Shown: positions 41,545-64,000 of the stretch, one piece after another
Position numbering within the stretch: the first letter of the stretch is position 1
Layout of the letters: each line of letters opens with the position of its first letter
Source: a virus
DNA: 64,000 bases
Reading direction: 5' to 3' (one strand)
IMG/VR virus record: IMGVR_UViG_3300025769_000006
Notes under the pieces: generated by a model
What the model was told of the DNA's origin: nothing
What the model saw: the letters and a program-made list of their open reading frames with translations, nothing else
Databases searched by the model: none
Translations under genes and position numbers: made by a program

Positions 41545-41801
41545 ACAACAACGACCACGTCTTGTGACTTTATAACGTGATATATATTTTTTTCAAACTC
41601 TATTTTATGACCAGCGTGTCTATCAAAAAATATTTCATCATTTTCTTTAACACCATCAACTTCATTTCCAACTGATATTACTAGTGCTCTTCTGTATCTT
41701 AAATCATTTTTTTGATTTTCAGAAAGAAGTAAACCACCTTTTGTTTCTGTAGTTCCTTCTTTTTTGACTAATATTATTAAGTTTCTACCTATTGCTTTCA
41801 T
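41541..41801 (-). CDS. groES: co-chaperonin GroES-like (Cpn10)
   Basis: At 86 aa: LIILVKKEGTTETKGGLLLSE (mobile-loop pattern) ..ALVISVGNEV..NDEIFF..IYHVIKSQDVVVVV. Confidence 0.75.
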   Translation of the reverse strand: MKAIGRNLIILVKKEGTTETKGGLLLSENQKNDLRYRRALVISVGNEVDGVKENDEIFFDRHAGHKIEFEKNIYHVIKSQDVVVVV

Positions 41802-49911: not shown

Positions 49912-49914
49912 TTA

Positions 49915-50397
49915 TTATTCAAATGTTTTTATTTCTACAAAAAACTGATATTCATTAGAAGCTGCGTTGTTTACATCAAAAGACCAAAAACCTATTGTTT
50001 GATTTGTTTTTGGCGCTGCAAAAATAGTTCTTAGTGTCTGAACCGCAGGTGGATCCCATGTGACGCGTGGTGTTACTAGTATTTGAGTTTTATTAGAATT
50101 GTACAGCACATTAGGTGATTGAGTGCTTAAATATGATAAACCTGTTACATCCATTCCAACTGTAGGTGTAAATCCTAAGTCATTATATAAAACAACCATT
50201 GTCGGAGCATTGACACCTGTTTGAGTGATTAATGCAGAAAAAGATTTATAACCTTTGCTTATTAACCTTGAAACATCTGATATTGAAAAGTTTGAAGTTA
50301 TAGGTTTTTCTTCAGTATCAGGTCTAGCGGTTTTAGTTCCTACTAACAAGTCTGAGTTTTTTGGTGTGTTTGTTGGATATGCACTTAAATTTGCCAT
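49915..50397 (-). CDS. structural protein (160 aa)
   Basis: ORF track entry. Confidence 0.4.
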   Translation of the reverse strand: MANLSAYPTNTPKNSDLLVGTKTARPDTEEKPITSNFSISDVSRLISKGYKSFSALITQTGVNAPTMVVLYNDLGFTPTVGMDVTGLSYLSTQSPNVLYNSNKTQILVTPRVTWDPPAVQTLRTIFAAPKTNQTIGFWSFDVNNAASNEYQFFVEIKTFE

Positions 50398-50400
50398 TTT

Positions 50401-50637
50401 TTATGATTTTCTTGTTCCTTTACCGTAATTACCTCTATTTTGTTTTACACTAACAAATCTCTGCTTAGTATGGTCGTAATCTTTGTCTAATAACCAGTTT
50501 TTACCATGATTTTTTTCTGCTTTTCTTCTTTTTCTTTGATTTTCAGCTTTTTTACGCTTTCTGTCGTCTGTTTTTGCGTACTCAAGATCTCTCTTGGCCT
50601 TGTCTCTTCTTGCTTTTGCGCTTAATTTTTGAGCCAT
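50401..50637 (-). CDS. highly basic K/R-rich protein, first gene of late operon
   Basis: ORF track entry. Confidence 0.45.
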   Translation of the reverse strand: MAQKLSAKARRDKAKRDLEYAKTDDRKRKKAENQRKRRKAEKNHGKNWLLDKDYDHTKQRFVSVKQNRGNYGKGTRKS

Positions 50638-50660
50638 TGTAGTTTGTTTTCGTATATTAT

Positions 50661-50673
50661 ATATACTTACATG
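50661..50673 (-). promoter_or_regulatory. late-type box CATGTAAGTATAT
   Basis: Lies 23 nt upstream of ATG 50637 and is a member of the CAWGTAAT family. Confidence 0.3.
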
Positions 50674-50702
50674 GTTTTTAGTGTTTTTACCTGTAAATTG
50701 AC

Positions 50703-50745
50703 TGACAATAGGTACTTACTTATATACTTAGGTACCCTTATGTCA
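50703..50745. promoter_or_regulatory. nested hairpin with conserved 15-nt loop TTACTTATATACTTA
   Basis: TGACA..GGTAC-loop-GTACC..TGTCA, in the divergent control region. Confidence 0.5.
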
Positions 50746-50793
50746 CATAAAATAAAAAAATGTCACAAATAGAGGGCTATGGTGTTACTACTA

Positions 50794-50818
50794 GTTTTTC
50801 AAAAAGTTTTTCGAAAAG
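50794..50818. repeat. tandem palindromic 12-mers GTTTTTCAAAAA / GTTTTTCGAAAA
   Basis: Read directly from the sequence in the divergent intergenic region. Confidence 0.6.
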
Positions 50819-50966
50819 CAAAATCGTTTCATTTTACCGGGTCCGCCCAATTTCTAGGGTTTTAGGTTTAACGTTTCAAGCCATTGTTTGATTTTCCACC
50901 AGCTTTTTAGCTTTTTTTTCAGCACCTACTCACGGACTTGCGAGTGATTTACATTATAGAACCACT

Positions 50967-51000
50967 CACGGAGTTACTCGTGTGCTTAACAGATAATATA
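50967..51000 (+). promoter_or_regulatory. class-E promoter CACGGA-N18-AGATAATATA
   Basis: CACGGAGTTACTCGTGTGCTTAACAGATAATATA, ending 39 nt before ATG 51040. An extra CACGGACTTG half-site lies at 50931-50940. Confidence 0.6.
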
Positions 51001-51039
51001 TTCGAAGTTTAAAACTAATATTAATTAAATTAAATTCCT

Positions 51040-51279
51040 ATGTCAAAAGTAAATCAAATTACTACAAAAAGATTTGTAATCAGAAAATCCTTAATTGGTA
51101 CAAACACAGTGATTACATTCACTAACAAGAACAAAGAAGTATGTAAGTACAATCATGACTTAGTCTACAATCAACTAAAAGAAAAGTTCGACGCTATGCC
51201 ATGCTTCAACAAGTACAACAGTTATACAAACTCTAACAATCTACCAAAGTTTGTAAGAGACCTTGAGAAAATAGTATAA
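51040..51279 (+). CDS. early protein, paralog family A (79 aa)
   Basis: ORF track entry; highly similar to 51782..52021. Confidence 0.7.
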   Translation: MSKVNQITTKRFVIRKSLIGTNTVITFTNKNKEVCKYNHDLVYNQLKEKFDAMPCFNKYNSYTNSNNLPKFVRDLEKIV

Positions 51280-51339
51280 CACTAATGACCTAAGCAAGTC
51301 ACTAAACTGCTTTATTTTTTAATTGTTTTATTATCTACT

Positions 51340-51373
51340 CACGGACTTGCTAGCGTATAATTTGGATAATATA
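51340..51373 (+). promoter_or_regulatory. class-E promoter (GGATAATATA variant)
   Basis: CACGGACTTGCTAGCGTATAATTTGGATAATATA. Confidence 0.5.
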
Positions 51374-51404
51374 ACCAAATAATAATAATTTAAAATTTAA
51401 AACT

Positions 51405-51575
51405 ATGTTTATAATAAACAAAAACCAAATTAAATTAACAACTAATTTATTAACAAACAAACACATCAACATCCAATTTTTAAACAACAAATTAATAATT
51501 AAATCAAATCCATCAAACACAAACATCCAAAAATTACTCGACCGCAATTACATTACTTATAAATTAACTAAATAA
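51405..51575 (+). CDS. small N/K/I-rich ORF (56 aa), not in ORF track; possibly a decayed paralog
   Basis: ATG 51405 to TAA 51573-51575. Preceded by a class-E motif. Confidence 0.3.
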   Translation: MFIINKNQIKLTTNLLTNKHINIQFLNNKLIIKSNPSNTNIQKLLDRNYITYKLTK

Positions 51576-51711
51576 AACTAAACCCCCAAATCTACTTTAA
51601 CCTACTAATACATACTAAGCATAACAAGCCTGATTTTGAAATAGGATCGGAAGAGTAGACTCCGTCCTACACCATACTTATGTATTCTTTTTTTGCTGCA
51701 TGCCGCACTCG

Positions 51712-51745
51712 CACGGACTTGCGCGTTAAGTTGTCAGATAATATA
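51712..51745 (+). promoter_or_regulatory. class-E promoter
   Basis: CACGGACTTGCGCGTTAAGTTGTCAGATAATATA. Confidence 0.6.
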
Positions 51746-51781
51746 ACTGTAAGCAACGAAGCTTATATTAAACTTTATACT

Positions 51782-52021
51782 ATGCAAAAAGCACAAAAAC
51801 TCACAACAAAGCGATTTGTTATTCGCAAGTCATTAATTGGTAAAAATGTAGTAATTACTTTTACTAACAAAAACAAGGAAAAATGCACTTATAATCATGA
51901 CCTTGTTTACGAGCAACTCAAAGAGCGATTTGAAGCTATGCCTTGCTTCGCTAAATATAGCTCTTATACTAATTCTAATAACTTACCTAAATTTGTAAGA
52001 GACTTAGATAAAATAGTCTAA
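51782..52021 (+). CDS. early protein, paralog family A (79 aa)
   Basis: In-frame ATG 51782 of ORF 51680..52021, which lies downstream of the promoter. MQKAQKLTTKRFVIRKSLIGKNVVITFTNKNKE.. parallels 51040..51279. Confidence 0.7.
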   Translation: MQKAQKLTTKRFVIRKSLIGKNVVITFTNKNKEKCTYNHDLVYEQLKERFEAMPCFAKYSSYTNSNNLPKFVRDLDKIV

Positions 52022-52027
52022 TACTTC

Positions 52028-52085
52028 ATACTGACATTAGCTAGTTACTTATATACTTAATTAGCTTTTGTCAGTATTTTTTTAA
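52028..52085 (+). terminator. rho-independent terminator with the conserved 15-nt loop
   Basis: ATACTGACA..AGCTA-gTTACTTATATACTTAat-TAGCT..TGTCAGTAT followed by TTTTTTT. Confidence 0.65.
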
Positions 52086-52101
52086 CCGATGCAAATTCTC
52101 G

Positions 52102-52135
52102 CACGGACTTGTGTCAAAAAACTACAGATAATATA
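52102..52135 (+). promoter_or_regulatory. class-E promoter
   Basis: CACGGACTTGTGTCAAAAAACTACAGATAATATA. Confidence 0.6.
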
Positions 52136-52228
52136 TCCGAGATTATTATTATACTGTACTCATATAGATACAGTGCATTATACCTCAGCACTATTTTTAT
52201 TTACTAAACAAAGTAACACCTTTAAACT

Positions 52229-52357
52229 ATGCAAAGAATAGAGATTATAGCGGCAATAGACGAGTTAAACCAATACTTAAATGGTAATGTATTTACTAGT
52301 AGTATAGTAGAGACATTAGAAAACTTAGCAGAAAAACTTAAAAATCAAACTATATGA
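52229..52357 (+). CDS. microprotein (42 aa), not in ORF track
   Basis: MQRIEIIAAIDELNQYLNGNVFTSSIVETLENLAEKLKNQTI, with an ATGA overlap onto the next gene. Confidence 0.4.
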   Translation: MQRIEIIAAIDELNQYLNGNVFTSSIVETLENLAEKLKNQTI

Positions 52358-52605
52358 GTAAAATGACTATGAAGGATCTATGCGAGTATTCTTCAAAACA
52401 AAGAAAACTTCGTGCCGCGGAGCATAGACGCGAGCACCACCACGACGGTTTATGCAGTGGACTTACTCAGTCGGAGTATAATAGAATGACTGTAAGACAA
52501 AAGACTAGTTTCTCAAAAGCTAGAAAGTTCACTCATAACCGTATGTGGAAAAGCACACACACTAAATTTGACTTAAAACAACTAAAACTAATAAGTAAAT
52601 CTTAA
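52354..52605 (+). CDS. basic hypothetical protein
   Basis: ORF track entry. Confidence 0.5.
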   Translation: MSKMTMKDLCEYSSKQRKLRAAEHRREHHHDGLCSGLTQSEYNRMTVRQKTSFSKARKFTHNRMWKSTHTKFDLKQLKLISKS

Positions 52606-52607
52606 TT

Positions 52608-52778
52608 ATGAAAAGAAAATTTATTCACTATGTAATTGCTAGACTTACAGATATTGCTATAAAAGCATTTATAGTATCGCTAGCGACAATAGCTATAGGA
52701 GGTATAGCGTTCTTTATCTTCATGATGATAACAGGACAAGTAGATTATGGTAACACCTCGTTTGGAATCTACGGATAA
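52608..52778 (+). CDS. small TM protein (56 aa), not in ORF track
   Basis: MKRKFIHYVIARLTDIAIKAFIVSLATIAIGGIAFFIFMMITGQVDYGNTSFGIYG. Confidence 0.45.
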   Translation: MKRKFIHYVIARLTDIAIKAFIVSLATIAIGGIAFFIFMMITGQVDYGNTSFGIYG

Positions 52779-52781
52779 CTA

Positions 52782-52815
52782 CACTGACTTATATATATAC
52801 AGTGCAGATAATATA
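52782..52815 (+). promoter_or_regulatory. class-E promoter (CACTGA variant)
   Basis: CACTGACTTATATATATACAGTGCAGATAATATA, with the same 24-nt register. Confidence 0.5.
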
Positions 52816-52845
52816 TTAAAATGTTCAACTAAATAATAAATAACT

Positions 52846-53103
52846 ATGCAAGTAAAAACTATTAAATTCTTAAACAAGTCAACTATTCTACTTAACAAAG
52901 TAAAATACAAAGGTTATCCTGTTGGCGAGCTACCTAAAAAGTTTGCTTTTATCTACAACGAAGAAGAAGACAAAGAAGGTATTAAAGAATGGTTCAACTA
53001 CAAAGGTTTAACCTATGTACAAGTAAAAGAGTCTATTTGGAGTCAAATAGCAAAAGACAACGAGCAAATGAATATAGAAATGCTATTTAAAACTATGAAT
53101 TAA
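52846..53103 (+). CDS. hypothetical protein
   Basis: ORF track entry. Confidence 0.5.
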   Translation: MQVKTIKFLNKSTILLNKVKYKGYPVGELPKKFAFIYNEEEDKEGIKEWFNYKGLTYVQVKESIWSQIAKDNEQMNIEMLFKTMN

Positions 53104-53104
53104 T

Positions 53105-53251
53105 ATGAGTATAACTAAAATCTTAGATACACTAGCACAAGAGTGGTACGGCGAGTTTGGCTTTGCCACTTGCAGCTTACAAGAACAAGACGCAATAGTA
53201 AAATATGCTTATGAGCAAAGCGTTCACAGAATAAATAATACTAATAAATAA
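53105..53251 (+). CDS. microprotein (48 aa), not in ORF track
   Basis: MSITKILDTLAQEWYGEFGFATCSLQEQDAIVKYAYEQSVHRINNTNK. Confidence 0.35.
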   Translation: MSITKILDTLAQEWYGEFGFATCSLQEQDAIVKYAYEQSVHRINNTNK

Positions 53252-53258
53252 TATAACT

Positions 53259-53690
53259 ATGACAAACTATCAAAAAGAGCAATTTCTGCTTGAAGAACAG
53301 TTCGTAAAGCGTTTGCTTATCGACTACGGAATCAGAGAAGTAACAACACAGAGGCAGGCTAAAAATGAAACTCGTGAGTTTGAGTTTCCTGTACCTGCAT
53401 ATACTAAACAAAGACTTAAGTGGCATGCTAAACGAAGCGACATAAAAGATTTACCAAGACTACGCATCGCTTGTTTCAAATCAGGTTATGTACGCAAGCA
53501 AAACGGTGCAGACAGAGCGTATCAACTAAATCCTGTTTACGAGCAAAATTATAGATGCGTATGGCAAAGAGACAACGGTGAACTATATGTTTCATCAGGT
53601 GTAAATAAAGCTCGCGCGCTTATATATTCTCCAATAACTAGACTAAACTTTATGCTACAATATTATCTTAGAAACTATGCAAACAATTAA
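53259..53690 (+). CDS. hypothetical protein (143 aa)
   Basis: ORF track entry. Confidence 0.5.
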   Translation: MTNYQKEQFLLEEQFVKRLLIDYGIREVTTQRQAKNETREFEFPVPAYTKQRLKWHAKRSDIKDLPRLRIACFKSGYVRKQNGADRAYQLNPVYEQNYRCVWQRDNGELYVSSGVNKARALIYSPITRLNFMLQYYLRNYANN

Positions 53691-53700
53691 AACTAAAAAT

Positions 53701-53835
53701 ATGAGAACACTTAAATTAACAGAAAACGATTGCACGTTTGTACACTATGTACTACGCATGTATGCTCAACAAACACCTGGATTAGATCAAGAAGACAAAG
53801 AAGAAATATACGAAGTTGCAGCTAAATTTAAATAA
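53701..53835 (+). CDS. microprotein (44 aa), not in ORF track
   Basis: MRTLKLTENDCTFVHYVLRMYAQQTPGLDQEDKEEIYEVAAKFK. Confidence 0.35.
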   Translation: MRTLKLTENDCTFVHYVLRMYAQQTPGLDQEDKEEIYEVAAKFK

Positions 53836-53836
53836 T

Positions 53837-53989
53837 ATGAGTAAAGAAAAATATAGAATAATATACAGAAACACTTATTACGGTGATGAAGAGATAGATA
53901 CAGCAGAAACTAAAGTAGAAGCTATTTGTTTAACTGGTGAATACAGAAAAGCTTTTCGCTCAGGTAATGTATACTTTAAAAGAATATGA
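53837..53989 (+). CDS. microprotein (50 aa), not in ORF track
   Basis: MSKEKYRIIYRNTYYGDEEIDTAETKVEAICLTGEYRKAFRSGNVYFKRI, with an ATGA overlap onto the next gene. Confidence 0.35.
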   Translation: MSKEKYRIIYRNTYYGDEEIDTAETKVEAICLTGEYRKAFRSGNVYFKRI

Positions 53990-54210
53990 CTATTAATATA
54001 GAATATAACGACCACAATTACGAAGTTTACTTTGATGTAATACTTGGGTCTCACGGTGATTATTTTAATCCACCTGAACCACCTGAAATACATATACACT
54101 CTGTTGTAGATGAAGATGGTAATGAAGTTCAAGATTATAGCGTAATAAACTATGCTGACGAAGAAATATATTATAAGTTAAGTGATGGCTATTTTGACTA
54201 CACGGACTAA
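53986..54210 (+). CDS. acidic hypothetical protein
   Basis: ORF track entry. Its C-terminal codons (..DYTD) form the upstream box of the next promoter. Confidence 0.5.
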   Translation: MTINIEYNDHNYEVYFDVILGSHGDYFNPPEPPEIHIHSVVDEDGNEVQDYSVINYADEEIYYKLSDGYFDYTD

Positions 54211-54234
54211 ATATAAATCACTACAGATAATATA
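54201..54234 (+). promoter_or_regulatory. class-E promoter
   Basis: CACGGACTAAATATAAATCACTACAGATAATATA. Confidence 0.6.
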
Positions 54235-54257
54235 TGTGAATAACAAAAAAACAAACT

Positions 54258-54452
54258 ATGTATTGTAAATGTAAACCAAATACTAAAATACCCGAAGCTC
54301 GAGTAGCTTTAGGTTATAAGACATGTGTTGATTGTTCTACTGCTGAGCAATATAGTTATGTACCAATAATCAACCATAAAACTGGCAATACTATTCAAAT
54401 AGTAAGTCAATCACTCTCCGCCGCGGTGCATAGGTCGTGGCGGCGTAAATAG
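54258..54452 (+). CDS. C4 zinc-finger protein, DksA/TraR-like
   Basis: CKC..(17 aa incl. IPEARVALGYKT)..CVDC is a spacing and context reminiscent of phage TraR. Confidence 0.45.
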   Translation: MYCKCKPNTKIPEARVALGYKTCVDCSTAEQYSYVPIINHKTGNTIQIVSQSLSAAVHRSWRRK

Positions 54453-54584
54453 ATAATCTAGAAGCTTAAGACATAGCTAGATATCTACAGCTAGACGAGT
54501 AGCTTAATTAGGTGTGTATGTGGCGACGACTATCGACGGATATATGTGATCATACGGAAGTGTATTACACACACATAAGTGAAT

Positions 54585-54682
54585 AGCTAGCGGCAACTAG
54601 GTATGGATGCAACAGGAGTTATTAAATTAACCAGAGTTCATTACTACTGACGAGTATGAGGGTTCGATTCCCTCGCTAGTTA
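54585..54682 (+). tRNA. tRNA-like element 1 (98 nt; acceptor and T-arm canonical, remainder not foldable as a cloverleaf; anticodon unassigned)
   Basis: AGCTAGC 54585-91 pairs 7/7 (one G-T) with GCTAGTT 54675-81. The T-arm is GAGGG-TTCGATT-CCCTC at 54658-74, the discriminator is A, and no CCA is encoded. Confidence 0.35.
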
Positions 54683-54772
54683 CAAAGCAGCAGGCCGGTA
54701 TGCTGCTCCCTTACAGGAAACATGTGCTATAAAGCACCAAGCCTTTTAGGTTGAAAACAAGTAAGGGAATAT

Positions 54773-54879
54773 GGGCGTGAAATGGTTAGACTACAAAATA
54801 GGTGGGCGAATGCCGTAAAGATACCGCGAGGAGCGGTACCTAAATTGTAGTAACGCAGGTTCGATTCCTGCCACGTCCA
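54773..54879 (+). tRNA. tRNA-like element 2 (107 nt; tmRNA-TLD-like: acceptor + T-arm + long helix, no D-stem)
   Basis: GGGCGTG 54773-79 pairs 7/7 (one G-T) with CACGTCC 54872-78. The T-arm is GCAGG-TTCGATT-CCTGC at 54855-71. There is a 12-position helix 54791-802 / 54839-850 and two inner hairpins. Confidence 0.4.
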
Positions 54880-54899
54880 CTAATTTTAAATAAACAACT

Positions 54900-55061
54900 A
54901 TGAAATACCTTTATGAACAACTAGACGAATTGTTAAACACTATTAAGTATGCAGAAGCATCGGGAAATGAAGACGCAGATTACTTAAAAAACGATTACTT
55001 TATAGACGTTTTAGAAGCATGTAGAGAAATTGTAGAATACACATCAGAAGAAAAAGAATAA
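54900..55061 (+). CDS. microprotein (53 aa), not in ORF track
   Basis: MKYLYEQLDELLNTIKYAEASGNEDADYLKNDYFIDVLEACREIVEYTSEEKE. Confidence 0.4.
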   Translation: MKYLYEQLDELLNTIKYAEASGNEDADYLKNDYFIDVLEACREIVEYTSEEKE

Positions 55062-55064
55062 ATT

Positions 55065-55259
55065 ATGCCAAACATGAGTTACTGCCGGTTTGAAAACACG
55101 GTAATGGATATGAGAGATTGTATAAACGCTATAGAAGATGGCGAGTGCGATTCACTAAGCAGCTACGAAGTAAGAGCTCTTAAACAATTTAAGGAAATGG
55201 GCGAAGAAATTAGTCGCCTTGATATAGACATTGATTTAATACTTGAAAGATATGTATAG
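55065..55259 (+). CDS. hypothetical protein (MSYCRFENT family)
   Basis: ORF track entry. Confidence 0.5.
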   Translation: MPNMSYCRFENTVMDMRDCINAIEDGECDSLSSYEVRALKQFKEMGEEISRLDIDIDLILERYV

Positions 55260-55356
55260 CAACTGCTGCGGAGCTGAACCTAGTTATTTAAGCGATAGCT
55301 TATGTGGTCAATGTCTTGAACATGCAGACTTTGACGACTACACGGAGGAAATATAA
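55252..55356 (+). CDS. Cys-rich microprotein (34 aa), not in ORF track
   Basis: MYSNCCGAEPSYLSDSLCGQCLEHADFDDYTEEI. Its last codons form the upstream box of the next promoter. Confidence 0.35.
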   Translation: MYSNCCGAEPSYLSDSLCGQCLEHADFDDYTEEI

Positions 55357-55374
55357 ATACTAATAGATAATATA
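55341..55374 (+). promoter_or_regulatory. class-E promoter
   Basis: CACGGAGGAAATATAAATACTAATAGATAATATA. Confidence 0.6.
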
Positions 55375-55387
55375 ATAAATTAAAAAC

Positions 55388-55639
55388 ATGAAAAGACTAA
55401 CAGTTTATCAAAGACTAAAACCTGAAATCAAAGAAGCTTTGCATTCAGAAGGAAACAAAAAGTACCAAACGTCTGTAGATTATTTAGTTGAAAAGCTAAG
55501 TGAAGCTACATTTTACAGTGATCTATCTATTAGCACGATTAGTTCACTTTACACTTTTACACACTTAGAGCTCGTTAAAACATCTGTATGGGATTTTAAG
55601 TATGGCGAAAACATATTAATATCTAAAGATTATGAGTGA
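55388..55639 (+). CDS. hypothetical protein
   Basis: ORF track entry. Confidence 0.5.
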   Translation: MKRLTVYQRLKPEIKEALHSEGNKKYQTSVDYLVEKLSEATFYSDLSISTISSLYTFTHLELVKTSVWDFKYGENILISKDYE

Positions 55640-55868
55640 TACAATTAAAAAGCAAAATACCATGTGTATTTTTGTGCTAGACTTTTTAGATGGTAAAGCA
55701 TATAAATATGACATTAGCGCGTTATGTAATGACGGAAACTGGTCAAGTCCGGGTAATTGGAACCCCGACAGTGAAAGCTGTGAAGCTTTTCTGATCGGCG
55801 CAGGTCATAGTATAGGAAATATAGAATGGATGGTAACTAATAATAATGAAATAGAATATGGCAACTAA
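55632..55868 (+). CDS. hypothetical protein
   Basis: ORF track entry. Confidence 0.5.
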   Translation: MSDTIKKQNTMCIFVLDFLDGKAYKYDISALCNDGNWSSPGNWNPDSESCEAFLIGAGHSIGNIEWMVTNNNEIEYGN

Positions 55869-56313
55869 AATTTTAACACAAGAACTAATTAAACAAACCT
55901 TAGAAGACAAAGGTTATCCAATGACACACGATGAAGGCATGACTTACGAGTTTATGCTTAAAAAAGTATGCGAATACTACGATGCAGAGATCGGCGAAGA
56001 CTGGAATGATAATGCAGATTTCTTTATATATTCAGAAACAACAGCTGATGGTTATGAAGTATATATTGCTACAAATAATTCAAGTAGTCCTAGTATAAAC
56101 GAAGATGTTTACTACTATGACAGCGATCTACACGAAAGATTAGAAGACGCATTAATTGATGGCGCTAGAATTTATGTAGATTATTTGCAAGATAATTATG
56201 TACACGAAGCAGCTGAATCTGCTTATGACTATTTATACGAAAGACTAATTGAAGAAACAGAAAACGAATTAATAGACGAAGGTTATGAGTACGAAAATCA
56301 AGAAGAAGAATAA
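55858..56313 (+). CDS. strongly acidic protein (151 aa), DNA-mimic / anti-restriction candidate
   Basis: D/E/Y-rich throughout and ends ..DEGYEYENQEEE. Confidence 0.35.
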   Translation: MATKILTQELIKQTLEDKGYPMTHDEGMTYEFMLKKVCEYYDAEIGEDWNDNADFFIYSETTADGYEVYIATNNSSSPSINEDVYYYDSDLHERLEDALIDGARIYVDYLQDNYVHEAAESAYDYLYERLIEETENELIDEGYEYENQEEE

Positions 56314-56318
56314 TTATT

Positions 56319-56474
56319 ATGGATAAAATAGAAAAATACGTAAGAGATAAATACCCTAAAAAGTTTAAAAATAAACCGGTATTAGTTAAAGAAACAAGTG
56401 GTATATACTTTGTATCAACACACAAAGATGAATCGCCTATAATATTAAGTAAAAAAACACTGGATAAATTATGA
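56319..56474 (+). CDS. microprotein (51 aa), not in ORF track
   Basis: MDKIEKYVRDKYPKKFKNKPVLVKETSGIYFVSTHKDESPIILSKKTLDKL, with an ATGA overlap. Confidence 0.4.
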   Translation: MDKIEKYVRDKYPKKFKNKPVLVKETSGIYFVSTHKDESPIILSKKTLDKL

Positions 56475-56665
56475 AAGTTAAACAATTTATAGAAAACAAA
56501 AACAAAATGCTTGATCGAGGTATTGTAGCAACGCCTGGAGACAGAGATAGATTAGAGTTGTTTGCTAACGCGAACAATGGAAGCAACGACTTTTTATTAA
56601 TGCAAATGGCTATTAACTTTGGTTATAAGATGGCTTTAGAAGATGTAGAGGAGGTATTATTATGA
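56471..56665 (+). CDS. hypothetical protein
   Basis: ORF track entry. Confidence 0.5.
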   Translation: MKVKQFIENKNKMLDRGIVATPGDRDRLELFANANNGSNDFLLMQMAINFGYKMALEDVEEVLL

Positions 56666-56931
56666 AAATAAAAGTAAAACCAATGTATGGTAATTCCAAC
56701 AGATCAATTCCTAATCAGTATCAGATTATAACGCCTAAAGGTGTATATTTTCAAAGTTACAACAGTATAATAGCTTACAAGCCTTATTATGGTAAAATAG
56801 AATTAGATGAATATTATTGGGATTATTCAAGAACAACAGGTAAATATCGCAATATGTTTCTCAATGAATTCATAGATGAAACAAGAGAAAAAATTAAATC
56901 AGGTAAATATAAATTAACAAACTTAAACTAA
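56662..56931 (+). CDS. hypothetical protein
   Basis: ORF track entry. Confidence 0.5.
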   Translation: MKIKVKPMYGNSNRSIPNQYQIITPKGVYFQSYNSIIAYKPYYGKIELDEYYWDYSRTTGKYRNMFLNEFIDETREKIKSGKYKLTNLN

Positions 56932-57014
56932 GTGAAAAATAATATAGATAAAAGTCAAATATTTTCTATTTTATTTTTAATGCTCTTATGCTACTTATGT
57001 TTTATAGTTAAAAA

Positions 57015-57566
57015 ATGGTCAATGGGTTTATTATGACAGACAATAGCACACTAAACAAATTGTTTAAAGAACATATAGAAGATATAAACAAGTTTATATA
57101 TTCTAAAGTAAAAGATATACATTTAACTAAAGATCTATCTCAAGAAACTTTAATAAAACTTACAAAAGCTTTACGTAAAAAAAACTATGAAGATCAGGGT
57201 AAATTTAAATCTTTTGCATTATGTGTGGCTAATAATATTATAGTAGATTATTATAGAAAAAAGAAACGTAGACCTAAAATGAAAAGATCTGAAACTTATG
57301 ATATATTTTCTAAAATAAAATATGAAGAATTAAATAAAGAAGAATATATTATAAAAGAACAGATGTTAAAAGAAGTTAAACAACTGCTTAATAAAATACC
57401 TAAAAAACTTAGACAAGTATTAATATTAAGGTTTTATAGTAAAATGACTTTTAGGCAAATAGCTAAAGAAACAAACACAAAAATTAATACTGTTCAAGGT
57501 AGATTTAGATACGGAATGGATAGACTAAAACAATTACACGGACTTAACGAGTTATTAAATAGATAA
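57015..57566 (+). CDS. sigma-70 family RNA polymerase sigma factor, ECF-like (regions 2 and 4)
   Basis: Region 2: FKSFALCVANNIIVDYYRKKKR. Region 4: LPKKLRQVLILRFYSKMTFRQIAKETNTKINTVQGRFRYGMDRLKQL. Confidence 0.75.
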   Translation: MVNGFIMTDNSTLNKLFKEHIEDINKFIYSKVKDIHLTKDLSQETLIKLTKALRKKNYEDQGKFKSFALCVANNIIVDYYRKKKRRPKMKRSETYDIFSKIKYEELNKEEYIIKEQMLKEVKQLLNKIPKKLRQVLILRFYSKMTFRQIAKETNTKINTVQGRFRYGMDRLKQLHGLNELLNR

Positions 57567-57570
57567 TATA
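57537..57570 (+). promoter_or_regulatory. class-E promoter embedded in the 3' end of the sigma gene
   Basis: CACGGACTTAACGAGTTATTAAATAGATAATATA. The last A of the motif is the A of ATG 57570. Confidence 0.5.
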
Positions 57571-57851
57571 TGACAGAAGAACAAATGAATAGATTAGCTG
57601 ATATTATTGTAGATAAAATAATAGAGCGACAACAACAATATGACAAGGAATTTAAAGAAGAATTAAAAGAGTTAGCTCAACAAAATCCAGATCTAGAATT
57701 TGGAACAATAACTCAAAAAGAATTAATAGAAGAAGAATTAAATAATCTTTATCAAGATCTAAAAGAGTTAGAAGAAAAAGAAGATTATGCAGCAGCTTCA
57801 AGATTATTAATAATCATAGAAAAATATAAAAAGAAATACAACATTAAGTAA
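57570..57851 (+). CDS. acidic coiled-coil protein
   Basis: ORF track entry. Confidence 0.5.
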   Translation: MTEEQMNRLADIIVDKIIERQQQYDKEFKEELKELAQQNPDLEFGTITQKELIEEELNNLYQDLKELEEKEDYAAASRLLIIIEKYKKKYNIK

Positions 57852-57871
57852 TGTGTATAGCATAACCACAT

Positions 57872-58069
57872 ATGTATATGATTAGATTTATAAAATTCAC
57901 AATAGTCTGGATCAGTCAAAATCTTGCAATACCTTTTTGGGTTGTAGGTCATGTTCACTTATCAATATCAGACTATAAAGATATACACGAGATAATAGCT
58001 AGTATAGGTATGAATATAATAGTCTTTACTGGTTTTATTATAGATTTTAAACAACAAGATAAACTATGA
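57872..58069 (+). CDS. small membrane protein
   Basis: Two hydrophobic segments: FTIVWISQNLAIPFWVVG and MNIIVFTGFIIDF. Confidence 0.45.
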   Translation: MYMIRFIKFTIVWISQNLAIPFWVVGHVHLSISDYKDIHEIIASIGMNIIVFTGFIIDFKQQDKL

Positions 58070-58554
58070 ACATATTTTATTTACATAGAGACCCAGTTAA
58101 AGCTGCGCGAATACAATACAATAAGCACGTGGTTAAAATGATCTTAGAATCAGCCCAAATGCTTTGTACGGCGCATCATTGTTATGGGGATGCGGAACAA
58201 AAATATAACGTACCTTATAAGCAAGCACATTTAAACCACCCTTCAACAATATGGGCCAGAAGGTCAAGAACAACTTATATGTGGTTATATGACCATATGA
58301 TTGCGCTTGGTAAAGAGTATACAAAAAGATATGGTAAAGAACATCTTACGATTGCTAAGTGTAGAGATTTTTTGTCTACACCACCTAGACATATACAAGG
58401 TAATGAATGGACTGAACCACCACAGTGTATGCCAGATGAATACAAAGTTGAAGGTAATAGTGTTGAGGCATATTGGAATTATTATGAAGGCGAAAAACAT
58501 AGTGTAGCAAATACAAATGAACAAAAAATATATAGATCATGCTTAAACTTTTAA
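58066..58554 (+). CDS. conserved hypothetical protein (N-terminus FYLHRDP..HVVKMILESAQML)
   Basis: ORF track entry. I recognise the N-terminal pattern as recurrent in phages and large DNA viruses, but cannot name its function. Confidence 0.5.
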   Translation: MNIFYLHRDPVKAARIQYNKHVVKMILESAQMLCTAHHCYGDAEQKYNVPYKQAHLNHPSTIWARRSRTTYMWLYDHMIALGKEYTKRYGKEHLTIAKCRDFLSTPPRHIQGNEWTEPPQCMPDEYKVEGNSVEAYWNYYEGEKHSVANTNEQKIYRSCLNF

Positions 58555-58877
58555 CAACAATAGTAGTAACAGCTACAATATACCATGCTGATCCTGCTCA
58601 ATGTAATGCTGATTATCTTACAACAGCTTCTCTTAAAACTATAAACGAAAAAAATCCTCAAGGTCATAGATGGATAGCTGTTTCAAGAGATTTAGAAAAA
58701 CACGGTTTTGTTTTTGGAACAAAGGTTTGTGTTGAGAATGCAGGTAATTTTGATGGAGTATGGACTGTTGAAGATCGAATGAACAAAAGATGGAAAAACC
58801 GCATAGATTTTCTTGTGAACAAAGATGTAAAAGGCGGTAAATGGAATAAAGTTAAATTAACAATAATATATGAGTAG
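58539..58877 (+). CDS. 3D-domain (double-psi beta-barrel, MltA/RlpA-like) protein with N-terminal signal anchor
   Basis: TATIYHADP..TASL..IAVSRDL..GTKVCVENAGNFDGVWTVEDRMNKRWKNRIDFL fits the 3D-domain pattern. Confidence 0.55.
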   Translation: MLKLLTTIVVTATIYHADPAQCNADYLTTASLKTINEKNPQGHRWIAVSRDLEKHGFVFGTKVCVENAGNFDGVWTVEDRMNKRWKNRIDFLVNKDVKGGKWNKVKLTIIYE

Positions 58878-58995
58878 ATATAAAATATACAAGCATTTAA
58901 TGCTTACGGATGTTTTTGGTGTTAAAACCAAAATTAAAAATTTTGTAAAACCTAGGCAGACAAAAGCCTATAATAATAAGAAAGTAAGAGGCTAA
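58870..58995 (+). CDS. basic microprotein (41 aa), not in ORF track
   Basis: MSRYKIYKHLMLTDVFGVKTKIKNFVKPRQTKAYNNKKVRG, with a TAATG overlap onto the next gene. Confidence 0.3.
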   Translation: MSRYKIYKHLMLTDVFGVKTKIKNFVKPRQTKAYNNKKVRG

Positions 58996-59639
58996 TGTCA
59001 CGTGAAAGAAATATAAAATGGTTAAATGATAGGCATGTTATATACAGGAAAGATCCTGTTAACGATGCGCCAACTATAGAAACCAAGCATTATAAATACT
59101 ATGAAGATGGTACGCACGAGTGTTATCACTTGTTTAATAGCAAGGCTAAGATTACTACGTACAAATCTTTAAAGTGGCATTTTTATGTTTTGTATTTTCT
59201 TAACCAAGACAGACCTGAAGGTTTGCTGCCAACTAGTATTTACGAGTTTATAGCAGATAAAGAAAATGGCTTTGTAACATTTTTTATTAGTGATAAAAAG
59301 CTAAACGAAATGATTGAAGACGTGTTCAATGATGGCGGTGAACCACCTTTAAATAAGAAACGTAAGATAATATTTAAAGACTATAGCGGTTTATCTTTTG
59401 ATCAAAAAATGAGTATTGTAGGTAAATTAATTGGAAGATCAAAACGTGTAAATGAAGAAGCTATATATGAATGTATGCTAGATTTAATTTATTATGGTAA
59501 AAAAATAACTTGGAGTAAAGTTGCAGTTTTGTTAAACTGTTCAGAAAGAACTGTAATAAGAAATATTAATAACGAATTAAAAAAAGAAAAAGAAATATTA
59601 AATGAAGAAATACAACATACAGAATTATATAAGATATAA
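58995..59639 (+). CDS. putative DNA-binding protein (C-terminal HTH)
   Basis: WSKVAVLLNCSERTVIRNINNELKKEKE is HTH-like. Confidence 0.4.
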   Translation: MSRERNIKWLNDRHVIYRKDPVNDAPTIETKHYKYYEDGTHECYHLFNSKAKITTYKSLKWHFYVLYFLNQDRPEGLLPTSIYEFIADKENGFVTFFISDKKLNEMIEDVFNDGGEPPLNKKRKIIFKDYSGLSFDQKMSIVGKLIGRSKRVNEEAIYECMLDLIYYGKKITWSKVAVLLNCSERTVIRNINNELKKEKEILNEEIQHTELYKI

Positions 59640-60354
59640 GGAAGATATTAAATCTTCAATGCCACCTCAAAAATTTTACGATTACTACACGAGAGATGAA
59701 TTAGTTGTTAAATTTATACCTCTTGTTGAAGCCATGGCTAGAAAACAATCAACATCACAACAAGCTGTTGGTGTTTTAACAATAATGGATCTATTTCAAA
59801 TTGGCAGTTTAGCTTTAGTAAAGGCAGTTGATAAATTAGACTGGGAAAGATTAATTGATTCAGAAGATATTGAAAAAACATTAAAAAGCTTTTTTAGTAA
59901 AAGAATAAAAGGTGCTATTAGAAGAAAAATAGATTCATTAAGAGGTAATATAAGAATACCAGAACATAAAATTAATGAAATACGTAAAAACCCTAAAGAC
60001 AAAAAAATGGTTGCTATGTTTTTTAATTCTATGTTTTTAAGTATAGACGCACAGCCTGTTAACGACGAAGAAAATATGATAAATCAAATAGCAGACAAGT
60101 CAGAACCATATAACATACAAATACTTAACATGTATTTAAAGAGTTTAATGAAAAAACATTTAACAGGCATTGAGTATGAGGTTTTAAGATTGTCTTATGG
60201 ACTAGATTGTGAAAAACATTCTGCTAACTATATAGCAGGTAAATTAGGCATAAGAGGTGTTAGCGCATATGTGCGTGTTTCAGAATTAAAAAAACAAGCT
60301 GTACAAAAATTAATAGACAGCGTTGATCACTCGCAAGTGCTTGACTTTCTGTAA
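59602..60354 (+). CDS. sigma-70 family sigma factor-like protein
   Basis: Region-2-like FIPLVEAMARKQ..LFQIGSLALVKAVDKLD. Region 4: YEVLRLSYGLDCEKHSANYIAGKLGIRGVSAYVRVSELKKQAVQKL. An alternative start at 59659 would remove the 38-nt overlap. Confidence 0.65.
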   Translation: MKKYNIQNYIRYKEDIKSSMPPQKFYDYYTRDELVVKFIPLVEAMARKQSTSQQAVGVLTIMDLFQIGSLALVKAVDKLDWERLIDSEDIEKTLKSFFSKRIKGAIRRKIDSLRGNIRIPEHKINEIRKNPKDKKMVAMFFNSMFLSIDAQPVNDEENMINQIADKSEPYNIQILNMYLKSLMKKHLTGIEYEVLRLSYGLDCEKHSANYIAGKLGIRGVSAYVRVSELKKQAVQKLIDSVDHSQVLDFL

Positions 60355-60364
60355 GTTACGACTA

Positions 60365-60398
60365 CACGGAATTAAAACAAAACGTAAAAGATAATATA
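60365..60398 (+). promoter_or_regulatory. class-E promoter
   Basis: CACGGAATTAAAACAAAACGTAAAAGATAATATA, ending 41 nt before ATG 60440. Confidence 0.6.
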
Positions 60399-60439
60399 AA
60401 CATGTAATTATAATAATAAGCAATTTAAATAAAAAACGA

Positions 60440-60988
60440 ATGAACATAAACGAAAAATTAGCTACAATCCAAACAAAGTTTAAATCAAAGAAAAGTAGAT
60501 TTAACTCCTTCGGCAAATATTACTTCAGATCAGCCGAAGATATTCTCGAAGCAACAAAACCCTTTTTATTAGAATTAGGAGTATCAGTAACAATTGATGA
60601 ACAATTGATAGATGTAAGTAATATACCTATAATTTGCTCAACAGCTACAATAAGTGACGGTAAAGAATCAATACACGCGTCAGCTTTAGTTGGAGTTGAT
60701 TTAAACCAAAAAGGTATGCAAACACCTCAACAGTTTGGCTCTGCTTCTAGCTACGGTAAAAAATACGCATTGGGTAATTTATTTTTAATAGATGACACAC
60801 AGGATTCAGACGCATCAAATACCCACGGTAAAACACAAAAAGCTAAAACTAAAAACACTATAACCTCTAAAAAAGATCCAGCATACGAAAAAGCGGTTCA
60901 ATACCTAGCATCAGGTGGTAAATTAGAAGCTATTAAGTCAAAATATAATCTTTCTAAAGAAATAGAAGGAGCGTTAAATACTTTATAA
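60440..60988 (+). CDS. ERF-family single-strand annealing protein
   Basis: FNSFGKYYFRSAEDILEATKPFLLELGVSV ... SASSYGKKYALGNLFLIDD fits the ERF pattern. Confidence 0.65.
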   Translation: MNINEKLATIQTKFKSKKSRFNSFGKYYFRSAEDILEATKPFLLELGVSVTIDEQLIDVSNIPIICSTATISDGKESIHASALVGVDLNQKGMQTPQQFGSASSYGKKYALGNLFLIDDTQDSDASNTHGKTQKAKTKNTITSKKDPAYEKAVQYLASGGKLEAIKSKYNLSKEIEGALNTL

Positions 60989-61719
60989 TGACAGAAAAAC
61001 AAGTTATAAAAAAACTAAAAGATGATAAACATTATTACGGGGATTTTGGTAAAAAATATCTCAGTAATTCTGATATAAGCAAGCTTTTAACAAACCCACT
61101 TAGTCTTAGAGAAGAACAAAAACAAATACCAGCTTTTTTAATAGGTGGTTATTTTCATACTGCTATATTAGAACCAGATAAACTTAAAAAGTTTAAAATA
61201 ATAGATGCTACAACAAGAAACACTAAGTTGTATAAAGAAATATCTGGTGGCGAAATGTGTTTGTTAAAAAGCGAAGTTGACAAACTAGAACTAATGATAG
61301 ATAAAATGCTAAGCAACAAAGCTTGCGTTGATCTTATAAGAGGTATAAATATTGAATATGAAAAACCTGGCATAACAGAGTTAGAAGGTTTAAAATGGAA
61401 AGGCAAAGCTGATATTGTTAATCACGATGAAAGATTAATAGTAGATTTAAAAACAACAGCTGATCTTCACAAATTTAGATATTCAGCTTCTAAATATAAT
61501 TACGACAGTCAAGCTTATATTTATCAACATCTATTTGGATATGAATTAATATTTATAGCAATAGATAAAACCACGCATCAAATAGGTATTTTTGATTGCT
61601 CACCTGATTTTTTATTGCGTGGTAGAGACAAAGTACAAAGAGCAGTTGAACAATATAAATTATTTTATGAATCAGAGGATTTTGATCCTCAACAATATTT
61701 TATTAATCAAACTTTATAA
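60988..61719 (+). CDS. PD-(D/E)XK exonuclease (RecE-like, DUF3799-type)
   Basis: GGYFHTAILEPDK and KGKADIVNHDERLIVDLKTT (D..D-x-K) are present. Confidence 0.65.
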   Translation: MTEKQVIKKLKDDKHYYGDFGKKYLSNSDISKLLTNPLSLREEQKQIPAFLIGGYFHTAILEPDKLKKFKIIDATTRNTKLYKEISGGEMCLLKSEVDKLELMIDKMLSNKACVDLIRGINIEYEKPGITELEGLKWKGKADIVNHDERLIVDLKTTADLHKFRYSASKYNYDSQAYIYQHLFGYELIFIAIDKTTHQIGIFDCSPDFLLRGRDKVQRAVEQYKLFYESEDFDPQQYFINQTL

Positions 61720-61721
61720 TT

Positions 61722-62033
61722 ATGGCAAGTATAATTAAAGCAAGTATCAATTTAAGCAATATTGATAAATCAAAAGTTATTGAAGGTAAAAAAGGTAAAT
61801 ATCTTCCTATAGTAATAACTTTAAATGATGACGTAGATCAATTTGGAAACCAAGGACCAATTGTTATAAGTCAAACAAAAGAAGAAAGAGAAAGTAAAGC
61901 AGCTAAAACTTATTTAGGTAATGTTCAAGTAGTTTGGACAAATGGAGAAAATGTTGCCGCTGCACCTAGAGCAGATCAACCTAAAGCCGCTGAATTTGTA
62001 GCTGAAGCAGGCGATGATGATCTACCGTTTTAA
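61722..62033 (+). CDS. small ssDNA-binding-like protein with canonical SSB acidic tip
   Basis: Ends in EAGDDDLPF. Its position is between the recombinase/exonuclease and the primase-helicase. Confidence 0.5.
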   Translation: MASIIKASINLSNIDKSKVIEGKKGKYLPIVITLNDDVDQFGNQGPIVISQTKEERESKAAKTYLGNVQVVWTNGENVAAAPRADQPKAAEFVAEAGDDDLPF

Positions 62034-62042
62034 TTAAATTAA

Positions 62043-63770: not shown

Positions 63771-64000
63771 ATGGCTTGGGGCAAAAAAGTAAACATGGGA
63801 ATTTATACTCCAGATAAATCAGAATTTGAAGCTTATCATTGGTGTATAAATAATAACATCTACATATCACCGTTTGCTAAAAATGAAGCGGCTTGGTATA
63901 TAGATATTGTAATTAATGGAAAAACAAATAGATCGCCGAGTGTGTATAGCAAACACACTATATGGAATACGATCTATGAATATTATAAATATTATTATGA
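63771..64000 (+). CDS. hypothetical protein, 3' end outside window
   Basis: The ATG at 63771 immediately follows the primase-helicase stop, and the frame is open to the window edge. Confidence 0.45.
   Translation, partial: MAWGKKVNMGIYTPDKSEFEAYHWCINNNIYISPFAKNEAAWYIDIVINGKTNRSPSVYSKHTIWNTIYEYYKYYY

Follow-up and report, generated by a model that had tools for sequence, protein, structure and literature searches.

Complete transfer-messenger RNA (tmRNA) genes are present in about 2% of phage genomes (PMC9004378). tmRNAs without a coding sequence (CDS) have been described in jakobid mitochondria, in two plastids and in one phage, mycobacteriophage DS6A (PMC11915505), and tag-less tmRNA mimics of phages previously rested on that one example, noted in database papers. 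The mRNA-like region of the jakobid molecule was lost according to Jacob et al. (2004), as cited in PMC11915505, and in these mitochondria SmpB has been retained alongside the CDS-less tmRNAs, which are proposed to assist when mRNAs are incomplete (PMC11915505). In E. coli, a molecule consisting only of the transfer RNA (tRNA)-like domain (TLD) has an inhibitory effect on the cell's own tmRNA, perhaps because it titrates SmpB (Mao et al. 2009, as summarized in PMC4131195 and PMC11915505). Here we describe an RNA island located at positions 54453-54899 on the plus strand of the viral record IMGVR_UViG_3300025769_000006, of which the whole stretch of 64,000 nucleotides (nt) that was analyzed is referred to as the window. 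The island, in a marine phage of flavobacterial type, consists of several clustered small genes for structured RNAs and is situated between a gene for a small zinc-finger protein and an open reading frame (ORF) starting at 54900. Judged from sequence comparison, its constant member is a CDS-less tmRNA that carries the alanine identity elements G3.U70 and A73. Unless indicated otherwise, the features described below are on the plus strand.

The mini-tmRNA, a TLD without an mRNA-like domain, spans 110 nt (54773..54882) and was delineated by a match to the Rfam tmRNA family RF00023, by its fold and by a covariance model of its own family, R1. At permissive thresholds, region 54773-54882 matched RF00023 with 37.7 bits (E = 1.9e-13) over model positions 1-374, about 304 of which are replaced by 40 nt. 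Both the alignment and the fold contain an acceptor of 7 base pairs (bp), GGGCGUG/CACGUCC with G3.U70 (54773-79/54872-78). It is followed by AAAUGGUUAG (54780-89), a D-loop analogue that contains GG, lacks a D stem and aligns to the D-loop of RF00023, and by a P2-like helix (54790-96/54845-51) enclosing a module of two hairpins (54799-54842). The T arm, GCAGG-UUCGAUU-CCUGC (54855-71), is likewise aligned to RF00023, and the discriminator A (A73, position 54879) precedes a trailer CUA (54880-82) that stands in place of CCA. When folded in isolation the 110-nt TLD adopted the structure of the RF00023 alignment (-42.1 kcal/mol, z = -4.3). Model R1, which was built from 25 seed sequences, gave a single match in the whole window (74.3 bits), and this match is the TLD.

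The window RNA resembles full-length tmRNA of RF00023 in its G3.U70 acceptor, stemless D-loop, P2 helix and T arm, but differs from it in what lies between. The pseudoknots (PK), resume codon, tag ORF and stop codon of tmRNA were not found in the window TLD, and PK1 and PK2-4 are gone from the RF00023 alignment. Neither the window nor any of 80 related loci yielded a tmRNA or tag with ARAGORN. With its 110 nt the RNA conforms to what is called a CDS-less tmRNA, i.e., a TLD of ~65-150 nt in which only a helix or hairpin stands for the mRNA-like domain. The RNAs of jakobid mitochondria and some plastids also consist of the tRNA-like domain only; those however arose by organelle genome reduction, have a dedicated imported SmpB, and are neither viral nor modular nor subject to cassette exchange.

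The TLD-only gene of DS6A (tmRNA Website ID 11587; Mao et al. 2009; Hudson et al. 2014) was located at positions 28478-28560 of JN698994 (L238). This 83-nt gene scored 43.2 bits against RF00023, just under the gathering threshold, with the same deleted-middle alignment, G3.U70 and an end ...CCACUA. Hence both RNAs are phage-encoded, comprise little beyond the TLD, and have G3.U70, a T arm and no tag ORF, the DS6A gene with a short P2 hairpin. They differ in their setting. DS6A is a temperate siphovirus of actinobacteria whose TLD-only gene is the sole phage case cited, whereas the RNA described here belongs to a large family of ~60-kb podovirus-like contigs akin to flavobacterial phages (312 with the linked gene). 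Its position beside a zinc-finger gene is fixed, its modular interior is hypervariable, and other RNA scaffolds occur with it. In DS6A the gene lies between gp33 and gp34 and is unannotated in the GenBank record; gp76 of the same phage (49300-50502) encodes an RtcB-like RNA ligase.

The extent of the family was determined in two ways. The exact 3′ half of the window TLD was recovered from 63 IMG/VR contigs, of which many are 59-69 kb long; nearly all of the 63 contained the same 5′ half and an entirely different interior. Using the zinc-finger protein as query, relatives were found in 312 viral contigs, 80 of which were fetched and kept as a locus sample; the 71 loci having at least 600 nt of downstream sequence are referred to as evaluable. 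The covariance model detected a TLD in 60 of these 80 loci, which had been found only through the neighboring protein, and a strict pattern scanner detected one in 58 of the 71 evaluable loci. Other elements of the island, whose structures are given below, occupied 34 (the 5′ hairpin scaffold, scored by its 5′-strand motif), 18 (the core of element 1) and seven (a three-way junction) of the evaluable loci. Altogether 87 distinct TLD variants of 68-152 nt were obtained, with structured interiors of ~20-104 nt; some TLDs measure only 68-72 nt in all, their interior being a hairpin of ~20 nt. Among the 63 RNA-found loci, the distance from the zinc-finger gene to the 3′ end of the TLD ranged from 94 nt, when the TLD is alone, to ~670 nt, and in 51 of them the gene for the same zinc-finger protein, of 62-70 amino acids (aa), was located directly upstream. 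GenBank phages contained no DNA homologue of the island or the TLD, only generic T-arm matches to tRNAs, and a literature search returned no published description of this RNA family.

In some relatives the same slot is occupied by a second allele of 81-82 nt with acceptor GGGGGUG...CACCUCC and T stem GACAG/CUGUC. In loci L125, L102, L090 and L138 this allele scored 53.1-64.7 bits against RF00023, above the gathering threshold of 47. Because these syntenic second alleles pass the curated threshold, the window RNA can be regarded as a diverged allele of a gene that Rfam classes as tmRNA.

Comparison of variants provided further support for the structure. For the acceptor and T stem of 22 scaffold types, four of the 12 pairs changed on both sides (31 cells), which none of 500 shuffles reached; pair 4 of the acceptor covaried between C-G, G-C and A-U, and three T-stem pairs covaried. 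Pairs G1-C and G2-C were fixed, and pair 3 was G.U in 20 of the 22 scaffold types and A-U in the other two. The P2 helix was analyzed with the anchored seed set and a chimera control. In the set of 25 seed sequences all five P2 pairs showed double-sided changes; the covariation score was 0.467, while shuffles gave 0.085 and slid controls did not exceed 0.048. Real P2 strand pairs formed at least five consecutive bp in 80% of the 87 variants versus 28% of the chimeras. At the level of sequence, these data show strong purifying selection on what appear to be the alanine identity elements of the TLD.

About a quarter of the 80 relatives contain an ordinary tRNA-Met(CAT) or tRNA-Gln gene downstream, mostly directly after the TLD, and these genes score 63-70 bits with Rfam. 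All of them have a discriminator followed by a CUA end and an A/U-rich leader, exactly as the TLD does. Since trailer and leader are common to these tRNA genes and the TLD, the TLD is probably matured by the same tRNA machinery. The reading that we favor, with modest confidence, is that the TLD is excised like a tRNA, completed with CCA, charged by alanyl-tRNA synthetase (AlaRS), and then competes for host SmpB and so interferes with trans-translation. According to this model, a promoter-like phage motif would drive transcription of island and zinc-finger gene together as a polycistronic RNA. The RNAs would then be cut out by RNase P and a 3′ endonuclease, as for the tRNA-Met and tRNA-Gln genes in the island of relatives, after which CCA would be completed and the host AlaRS would charge the TLD with alanine. 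The charged TLD would bind host SmpB and EF-Tu and, having no template to resume on, would compete with host tmRNA, thereby blocking or diverting trans-translation and tagging during infection. No SmpB gene was found in the window using an E. coli SmpB sequence as query, so that any SmpB partner would be that of the host, and none of the ten larger ORFs of the window encodes a tRNA- or translation-related enzyme.

Several observations weigh against this model. First, the 37.7 bits of the window TLD are below the RF00023 gathering threshold. Second, the base of P2 in the window allele is G.A followed by A-U, whereas the second allele and the Rfam consensus have tandem G.A/A.G; SmpB binding is therefore less certain for the window allele. 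Third, the figures of 100% pairing are partly by construction, because the scanner demanded canonical pairing, although this requirement did not build in the double-sided changes. Fourth, the TLDs of loci L059 and L100 have A3-U70 instead of G3.U70 (GGACGUG/CACGUCC), a change that would be expected to remove alanine identity; these two variants may be forms found in nature that cannot be charged. Finally, a pure SmpB decoy leaves unexplained that the interior is swapped rapidly and that the same modules are found on other scaffolds.

This swapping became evident from 32 pairs of loci in which the zinc-finger genes are at least 95% identical in nucleotide sequence. In 62% of these pairs the TLD interiors were unrelated while the scaffolds were 98% identical. 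The median interior identity in the 32 pairs was 0.47, equal to that of distant pairs, which indicates that the interior is replaced by exchange and not by drift. In addition, modules are portable between scaffolds. The module of the window TLD (UAGGUGGGCGAAUGCC...GGUACCUAAAU) recurred inside the 5′ hairpin scaffold of L089, L151, L119 and L072, and the tip of the window's 5′ hairpin scaffold (GUGG...GACUAUCGACGG...ACGGAAGUGUAUUA) recurred inside the TLDs of L028 and L143. The hairpin-tip module was found in 14 contexts, sometimes nested within another portable module; this number counts contexts in which the whole module is present, since a 15-mer scan for the same module gave mostly chance matches. 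Modules were 86-98% identical across contexts and contained compensatory changes (GGGC/GCC versus GAGC/GCU). On the basis of these comparisons, the other RNAs of the island (hairpin scaffold, element 1 and three-way junction) appear as optional companions that draw on a module pool in common with the TLD interior. In the TLD interiors of L026, L043 and L047 one module has the 10-mer GACAGUAUCU on both helix strands, resulting in a symmetric internal loop; this loop could be a protein-binding or dimerisation site.

The exchange data bear on the main rival reading, in our view less probable than the decoy, in which the tRNA-like frames (TLD, element 1 and hairpin scaffold) serve chiefly to give processing signals and nuclease resistance and the interchangeable modules are the functional parts, e.g., decoys or aptamers in a phage-host arms race. 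Replacement of interiors between nearly identical loci, recurrence of the window's modules in other scaffolds and nesting, and compensatory changes within modules are what such display of cargo would produce. A mere scaffold, however, would not need the conserved G3.U70 and A73 or the near-invariant acceptor and D-loop; no module matched any Rfam family or has a known target; and the TLDs of 68-72 nt, carrying just a hairpin of ~20 nt, indicate that long cargo is dispensable. This reading and the SmpB decoy are not mutually exclusive. A more far-reaching reading, which we put forward tentatively, is a combinatorial RNA cassette system: several tRNA- or tmRNA-like scaffolds processed by the host tRNA machinery would display shared, rapidly exchanged and nested modules as the active agents (decoys, sponges or sensors in the phage-host arms race), the tmRNA-type frame might in addition deliver them to SmpB, EF-Tu or the ribosome, and the zinc-finger protein encoded next to the island would be the protein partner. 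Ponchon and Dardel are said to have engineered tRNA scaffolds for recombinant RNA, in which the frame gives processing and stability and any structured RNA can replace one arm. Those are synthetic, whereas here the frames are natural and of the tmRNA type, and several natural scaffolds trade their inserts.

The structural evidence cited for the SmpB decoy would equally fit a helper in ribosome rescue that does not tag, alanyl-TLD plus SmpB entering ribosomes stalled on cleaved mRNAs and helping to free them without marking phage proteins for degradation. The persistence of jakobid CDS-less tmRNAs with SmpB, and the role proposed for them with incomplete mRNAs (PMC11915505), lend this idea some plausibility. 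We nevertheless consider it unlikely: no route is known by which translation could terminate after transpeptidation when resume codon and stop codon are both lacking, and the sole experiment with a TLD-only molecule, as described in PMC4131195 and PMC11915505, showed inhibition rather than rescue.

Much less probable still is that the island acts purely in cis, its structures stabilizing or terminating the zinc-finger mRNA or being recombination sites, with no role in trans. The island always directly follows the zinc-finger gene, and the conserved scaffold halves flanking the swapped interiors could be recombination anchors. Yet the island contains no plus-strand terminator-like site. Moreover, it is maturation in the manner of a tRNA that is suggested by the elements of alanine identity, by a leader and a trailer of tRNA type and by the genuine tRNA genes found at the same location.

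The least credible explanation, for which we see hardly any room, is that of two ordinary tRNAs with introns or long variable arms, or of a host ssrA fragment serving as attachment site: it could draw on the two canonical T-loop motifs and on the call by ARAGORN of the TLD of L114 as a tRNA-Gln with an insert, but ARAGORN found no tRNA in the window, a conserved 7-nt anticodon loop is missing from both elements, and their arms differ wholly in length and sequence from one relative to another. The RNA is not a 3′ ssrA fragment, because both acceptor strands are present and paired. A host ssrA copy or attP was rejected as a candidate, the exact 3′ half being present in only six fragments of metagenome-assembled genomes (MAGs) among 185,579 species genomes. 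The tRNA family RF00005 gave no match in the window even at E <= 10, and no cloverleaf with a 7-nt anticodon loop was found there. In agreement with the preliminary description, which considered the island too elaborate for a pair of plain tRNA genes, ARAGORN predicted no gene and Rfam gave no hit at gathering score in the window; two ordinary tRNAs as an explanation of the region therefore found no support, and genes of this kind are missed by the standard scanners.

The TLD-only core is a known though rare type of RNA. The novelty lies in the family's size, with strong conservation among uncultured, podovirus-like phages that have cultured relatives infecting Flavobacteriaceae, in its constant link to a zinc-finger gene, in an interior exchanged like a cassette and in the two further undescribed RNA scaffolds. 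An invariant frame whose interior is exchanged faster than substitutions build up in neighboring genes has not been described among mimics of tmRNA or tRNA, and novelty may also lie in the modular cargo. The existence of a large TLD family suggests that phages recurrently interfere with ribosome rescue or exploit it. These RNAs can be tested in relation to two questions: how phages manipulate trans-translation, and whether natural "tRNA scaffolds" deploy variable functional RNAs.

Regarding the island as a whole, the 447 nt of 54453-54899 form the longest plus-strand gap without an ORF of at least 40 aa in region 49912-64000, the next-longest gaps being 229, 220 and 200 nt, which bears out its designation as the only long ORF-free stretch of the plus-strand arm. 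Its G+C content was raised as noted before (0.42 versus 0.31 for the arm; 0.43 in a 200-nt profile versus 0.27-0.33 for the flanks). The island also is highly structured, since it folded with -130.1 kcal/mol (z = -4.36) and none of 100 shuffles folded as well. The T-loop motif GGTTCGATTCC occurs twice, at 54661 and 54858, versus zero expected from 100 shuffles. The earlier view of a composite non-coding RNA or a cluster of tRNA-like RNAs holds in that comparison resolved several separable modules, but it missed that the second T-loop element is the TLD of a tmRNA. CTAG, reported as frequent, is present at six sites (54458, 54477, 54491, 54587, 54597 and 54676) versus ~1.6 expected from base composition, with a window-wide density of 3.7 per kb, and AGCTAG occurs three times (54475, 54489 and 54585). 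Four of the six CTAGs are strands of helices in the 5′ hairpin scaffold and element 1, and the other two lie in a 36-nt leader; the excess is mostly explained by the strands of two scaffold helices. We infer from the sequence that the island would be early and its RNAs processed.

The leader (54453..54488) is not conserved. It contains the palindromic hexamers TCTAGA, AAGCTT, CTTAAG and GATATC, has no counterpart in any of the fetched loci and is unique to the window genome among them; the islands of relatives open directly with CTAGACGAG. AGATAATCTA, noted at the start of the island as a near copy of a downstream box, is indeed present at 54451-60, but its significance as a box did not hold up: it overlaps the stop codon of the zinc-finger gene and is absent from relatives, and the copy is probably incidental.

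The 5′ hairpin scaffold (54489..54593) is conserved, with different tips, in many loci. Its closing helix GCUAG/CUAGC (54490-94/54587-91) covaries to GCAGG/CCUGC in L141 and L059. It further contains a conserved internal loop ACGAGUA/GAAUAG that resembles a loop-E or bulged-G motif, a helix GCUUA/UAAGU (54502-06/54576-80) and a variable tip module (54511-54573). The tip includes the GTGTGTA/TACACAC helix recognized before, although TACACAC is located at 54567-73 and not at 54565-71. The thermodynamic signal of the scaffold alone was weak (z = -0.94).

The core of element 1 (54594..54685) is a second tRNA-like RNA without an anticodon arm, whose 22-23 distinct variants share one frame and differ in their arms. 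It comprises an acceptor-like stem AACUAG/CUAGUU (54595-600/54676-81), a loop GGUAUGG that contains GG, a variable long arm (54607-41), a mini-hairpin UACU-GACG-AGUA (54645-56) and a T arm (54658-74) followed by A-CAA. The mini-hairpin covaries between U-A, C-G and U.G (UACU/AGUA, UACC/GGUA and UACU/GGUA). AGCUAGC (54586-92) is an alternative 5′ strand that could also pair with the 3′ strand of the element 1 acceptor. With its acceptor-like stem, GG loop, T arm and a short hairpin at the place of the variable arm, element 1 is reminiscent of class II tRNAs and YrlA, but it lacks a D stem and anticodon loop, and its long arm is hypervariable. ARAGORN and Rfam made no tRNA call for element 1, and Rfam gave no tRNA or YrlA match for it even at E <= 10. 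Two other structures were discarded: a hammerhead reading of CUGACGAG, which has no GAAA core and is the segment of the covarying mini-hairpin, and a long-range GUAGC/GCUAC pairing, which the comparison of variants did not support.

Between element 1 and the TLD, the hairpin AGCAGCA-GGCCGGUA-UGCUGCU (54686..54707) and the helix CCCUUAC/GUAAGGG (54708-14/54761-67) were found where they had been placed before. In relatives the stem of the hairpin varies while its loop, CCGGU(A/G)U, is kept, and it accompanies the three-way-junction RNA (54708..54767) that is closed by the CCCUUAC/GUAAGGG helix and contains the hairpins GUGCU-AUAA-AGCAC and AGCCU-UUU-AGGUU. All nine variants of this junction are located directly 5′ of a TLD. 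Their RNAalifold consensus agrees with the helices of the preliminary description; one pair covaries between C-G and U-A (five to four), and the loop sequences are near-invariant. The junction gave no Rfam match.

Some relatives have other structures in this place. In L147 and L153 (~1690-2180) the islands are longer than 480 nt and contain a different long, G+C-rich and apparently structured sequence followed by tRNA-Met, with no TLD and no Rfam match besides the tRNA. In L105 and L109 the region 3′ of the zinc-finger gene contains a different element with a T-loop (...GAGAGTTCGATTCTCTTACTAATAAC), which can be assigned neither to the TLD nor to element 1. The sole TLD matches in bacterial genomes (L074-L079) are small MAG contigs, from an 'Aliivibrio sp.' MAG and two Bacteroidetes MAGs and including one 56-kb contig; they are most likely phage contigs that were binned into MAGs.

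The zinc-finger protein encoded directly upstream of the island (54258..54452) has 64 aa, with a CxC...CxxC arrangement and a basic C-terminus ...VHRSWRRK. Its former label as TraR/DksA-like was not sustained: there is no match to zf-dskA_traR, and the four cysteines (C3, C5, C23 and C26) are N-terminal, so that the C4 finger is not at the C-terminus. More generally, Pfam gave no match at E <= 0.01 for the window protein or at E <= 1 for 18 homologues, PHROGs gave none, and tblastn against cultured and GenBank phages gave no match either. An AlphaFold2 model (mean predicted local distance difference test score, pLDDT, 68.5) shows a zinc ribbon and a beta-hairpin, and Foldseek found nothing for it in the PDB at E <= 0.001.

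A 33-nt motif, CACGGA-N2-AAATATAAAT-N6-AGATAATAT, is present in two exact copies (54201..54233 and 55341-55373) versus zero expected, and these copies bracket a unit of the zinc-finger gene, the RNA island and three small ORFs. We infer this motif to be a promoter. It overlaps the 3′ ends of two ORFs, both ending in ...DYT(D/E), and is therefore partly coding. The box AGATAATATA has nine occurrences, of which eight fall within 50991-60398 on the plus arm. The first ORF after the island (54900..55061, 53 aa) is poorly conserved, and the next conserved gene starts at 55065.

The window amounts in essence to a single phage genome of about 60 kb and encodes a portal, large terminase, virion proteins, a primase-helicase and a ribonucleotide reductase. 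The terminase is closest to that of the uncultured 'Podoviridae sp.' MW202828.1 (63% aa identity), followed by those of Flavobacterium 'elemo' podoviruses and then of Cellulophaga, Tenacibaculum and Maribacter phages. As these terminase relatives infect that group, the host is very probably a member of the Flavobacteriaceae. No T-loop motif was found in the 60 kb fetched of MW202828.1, in which the equivalent place is unannotated coding sequence. On the minus strand of the window, an ORF of 2453 aa (6062-13423) heads the structural arm, and MW202828.1 has an 11.6-kb ORF at the same place. The minus strand also encodes a GroEL-type chaperonin (41785-43341; Pfam Cpn60_TCP1, E = 8e-56), and MW202828.1 is annotated with both groEL and a 10-kDa co-chaperonin.

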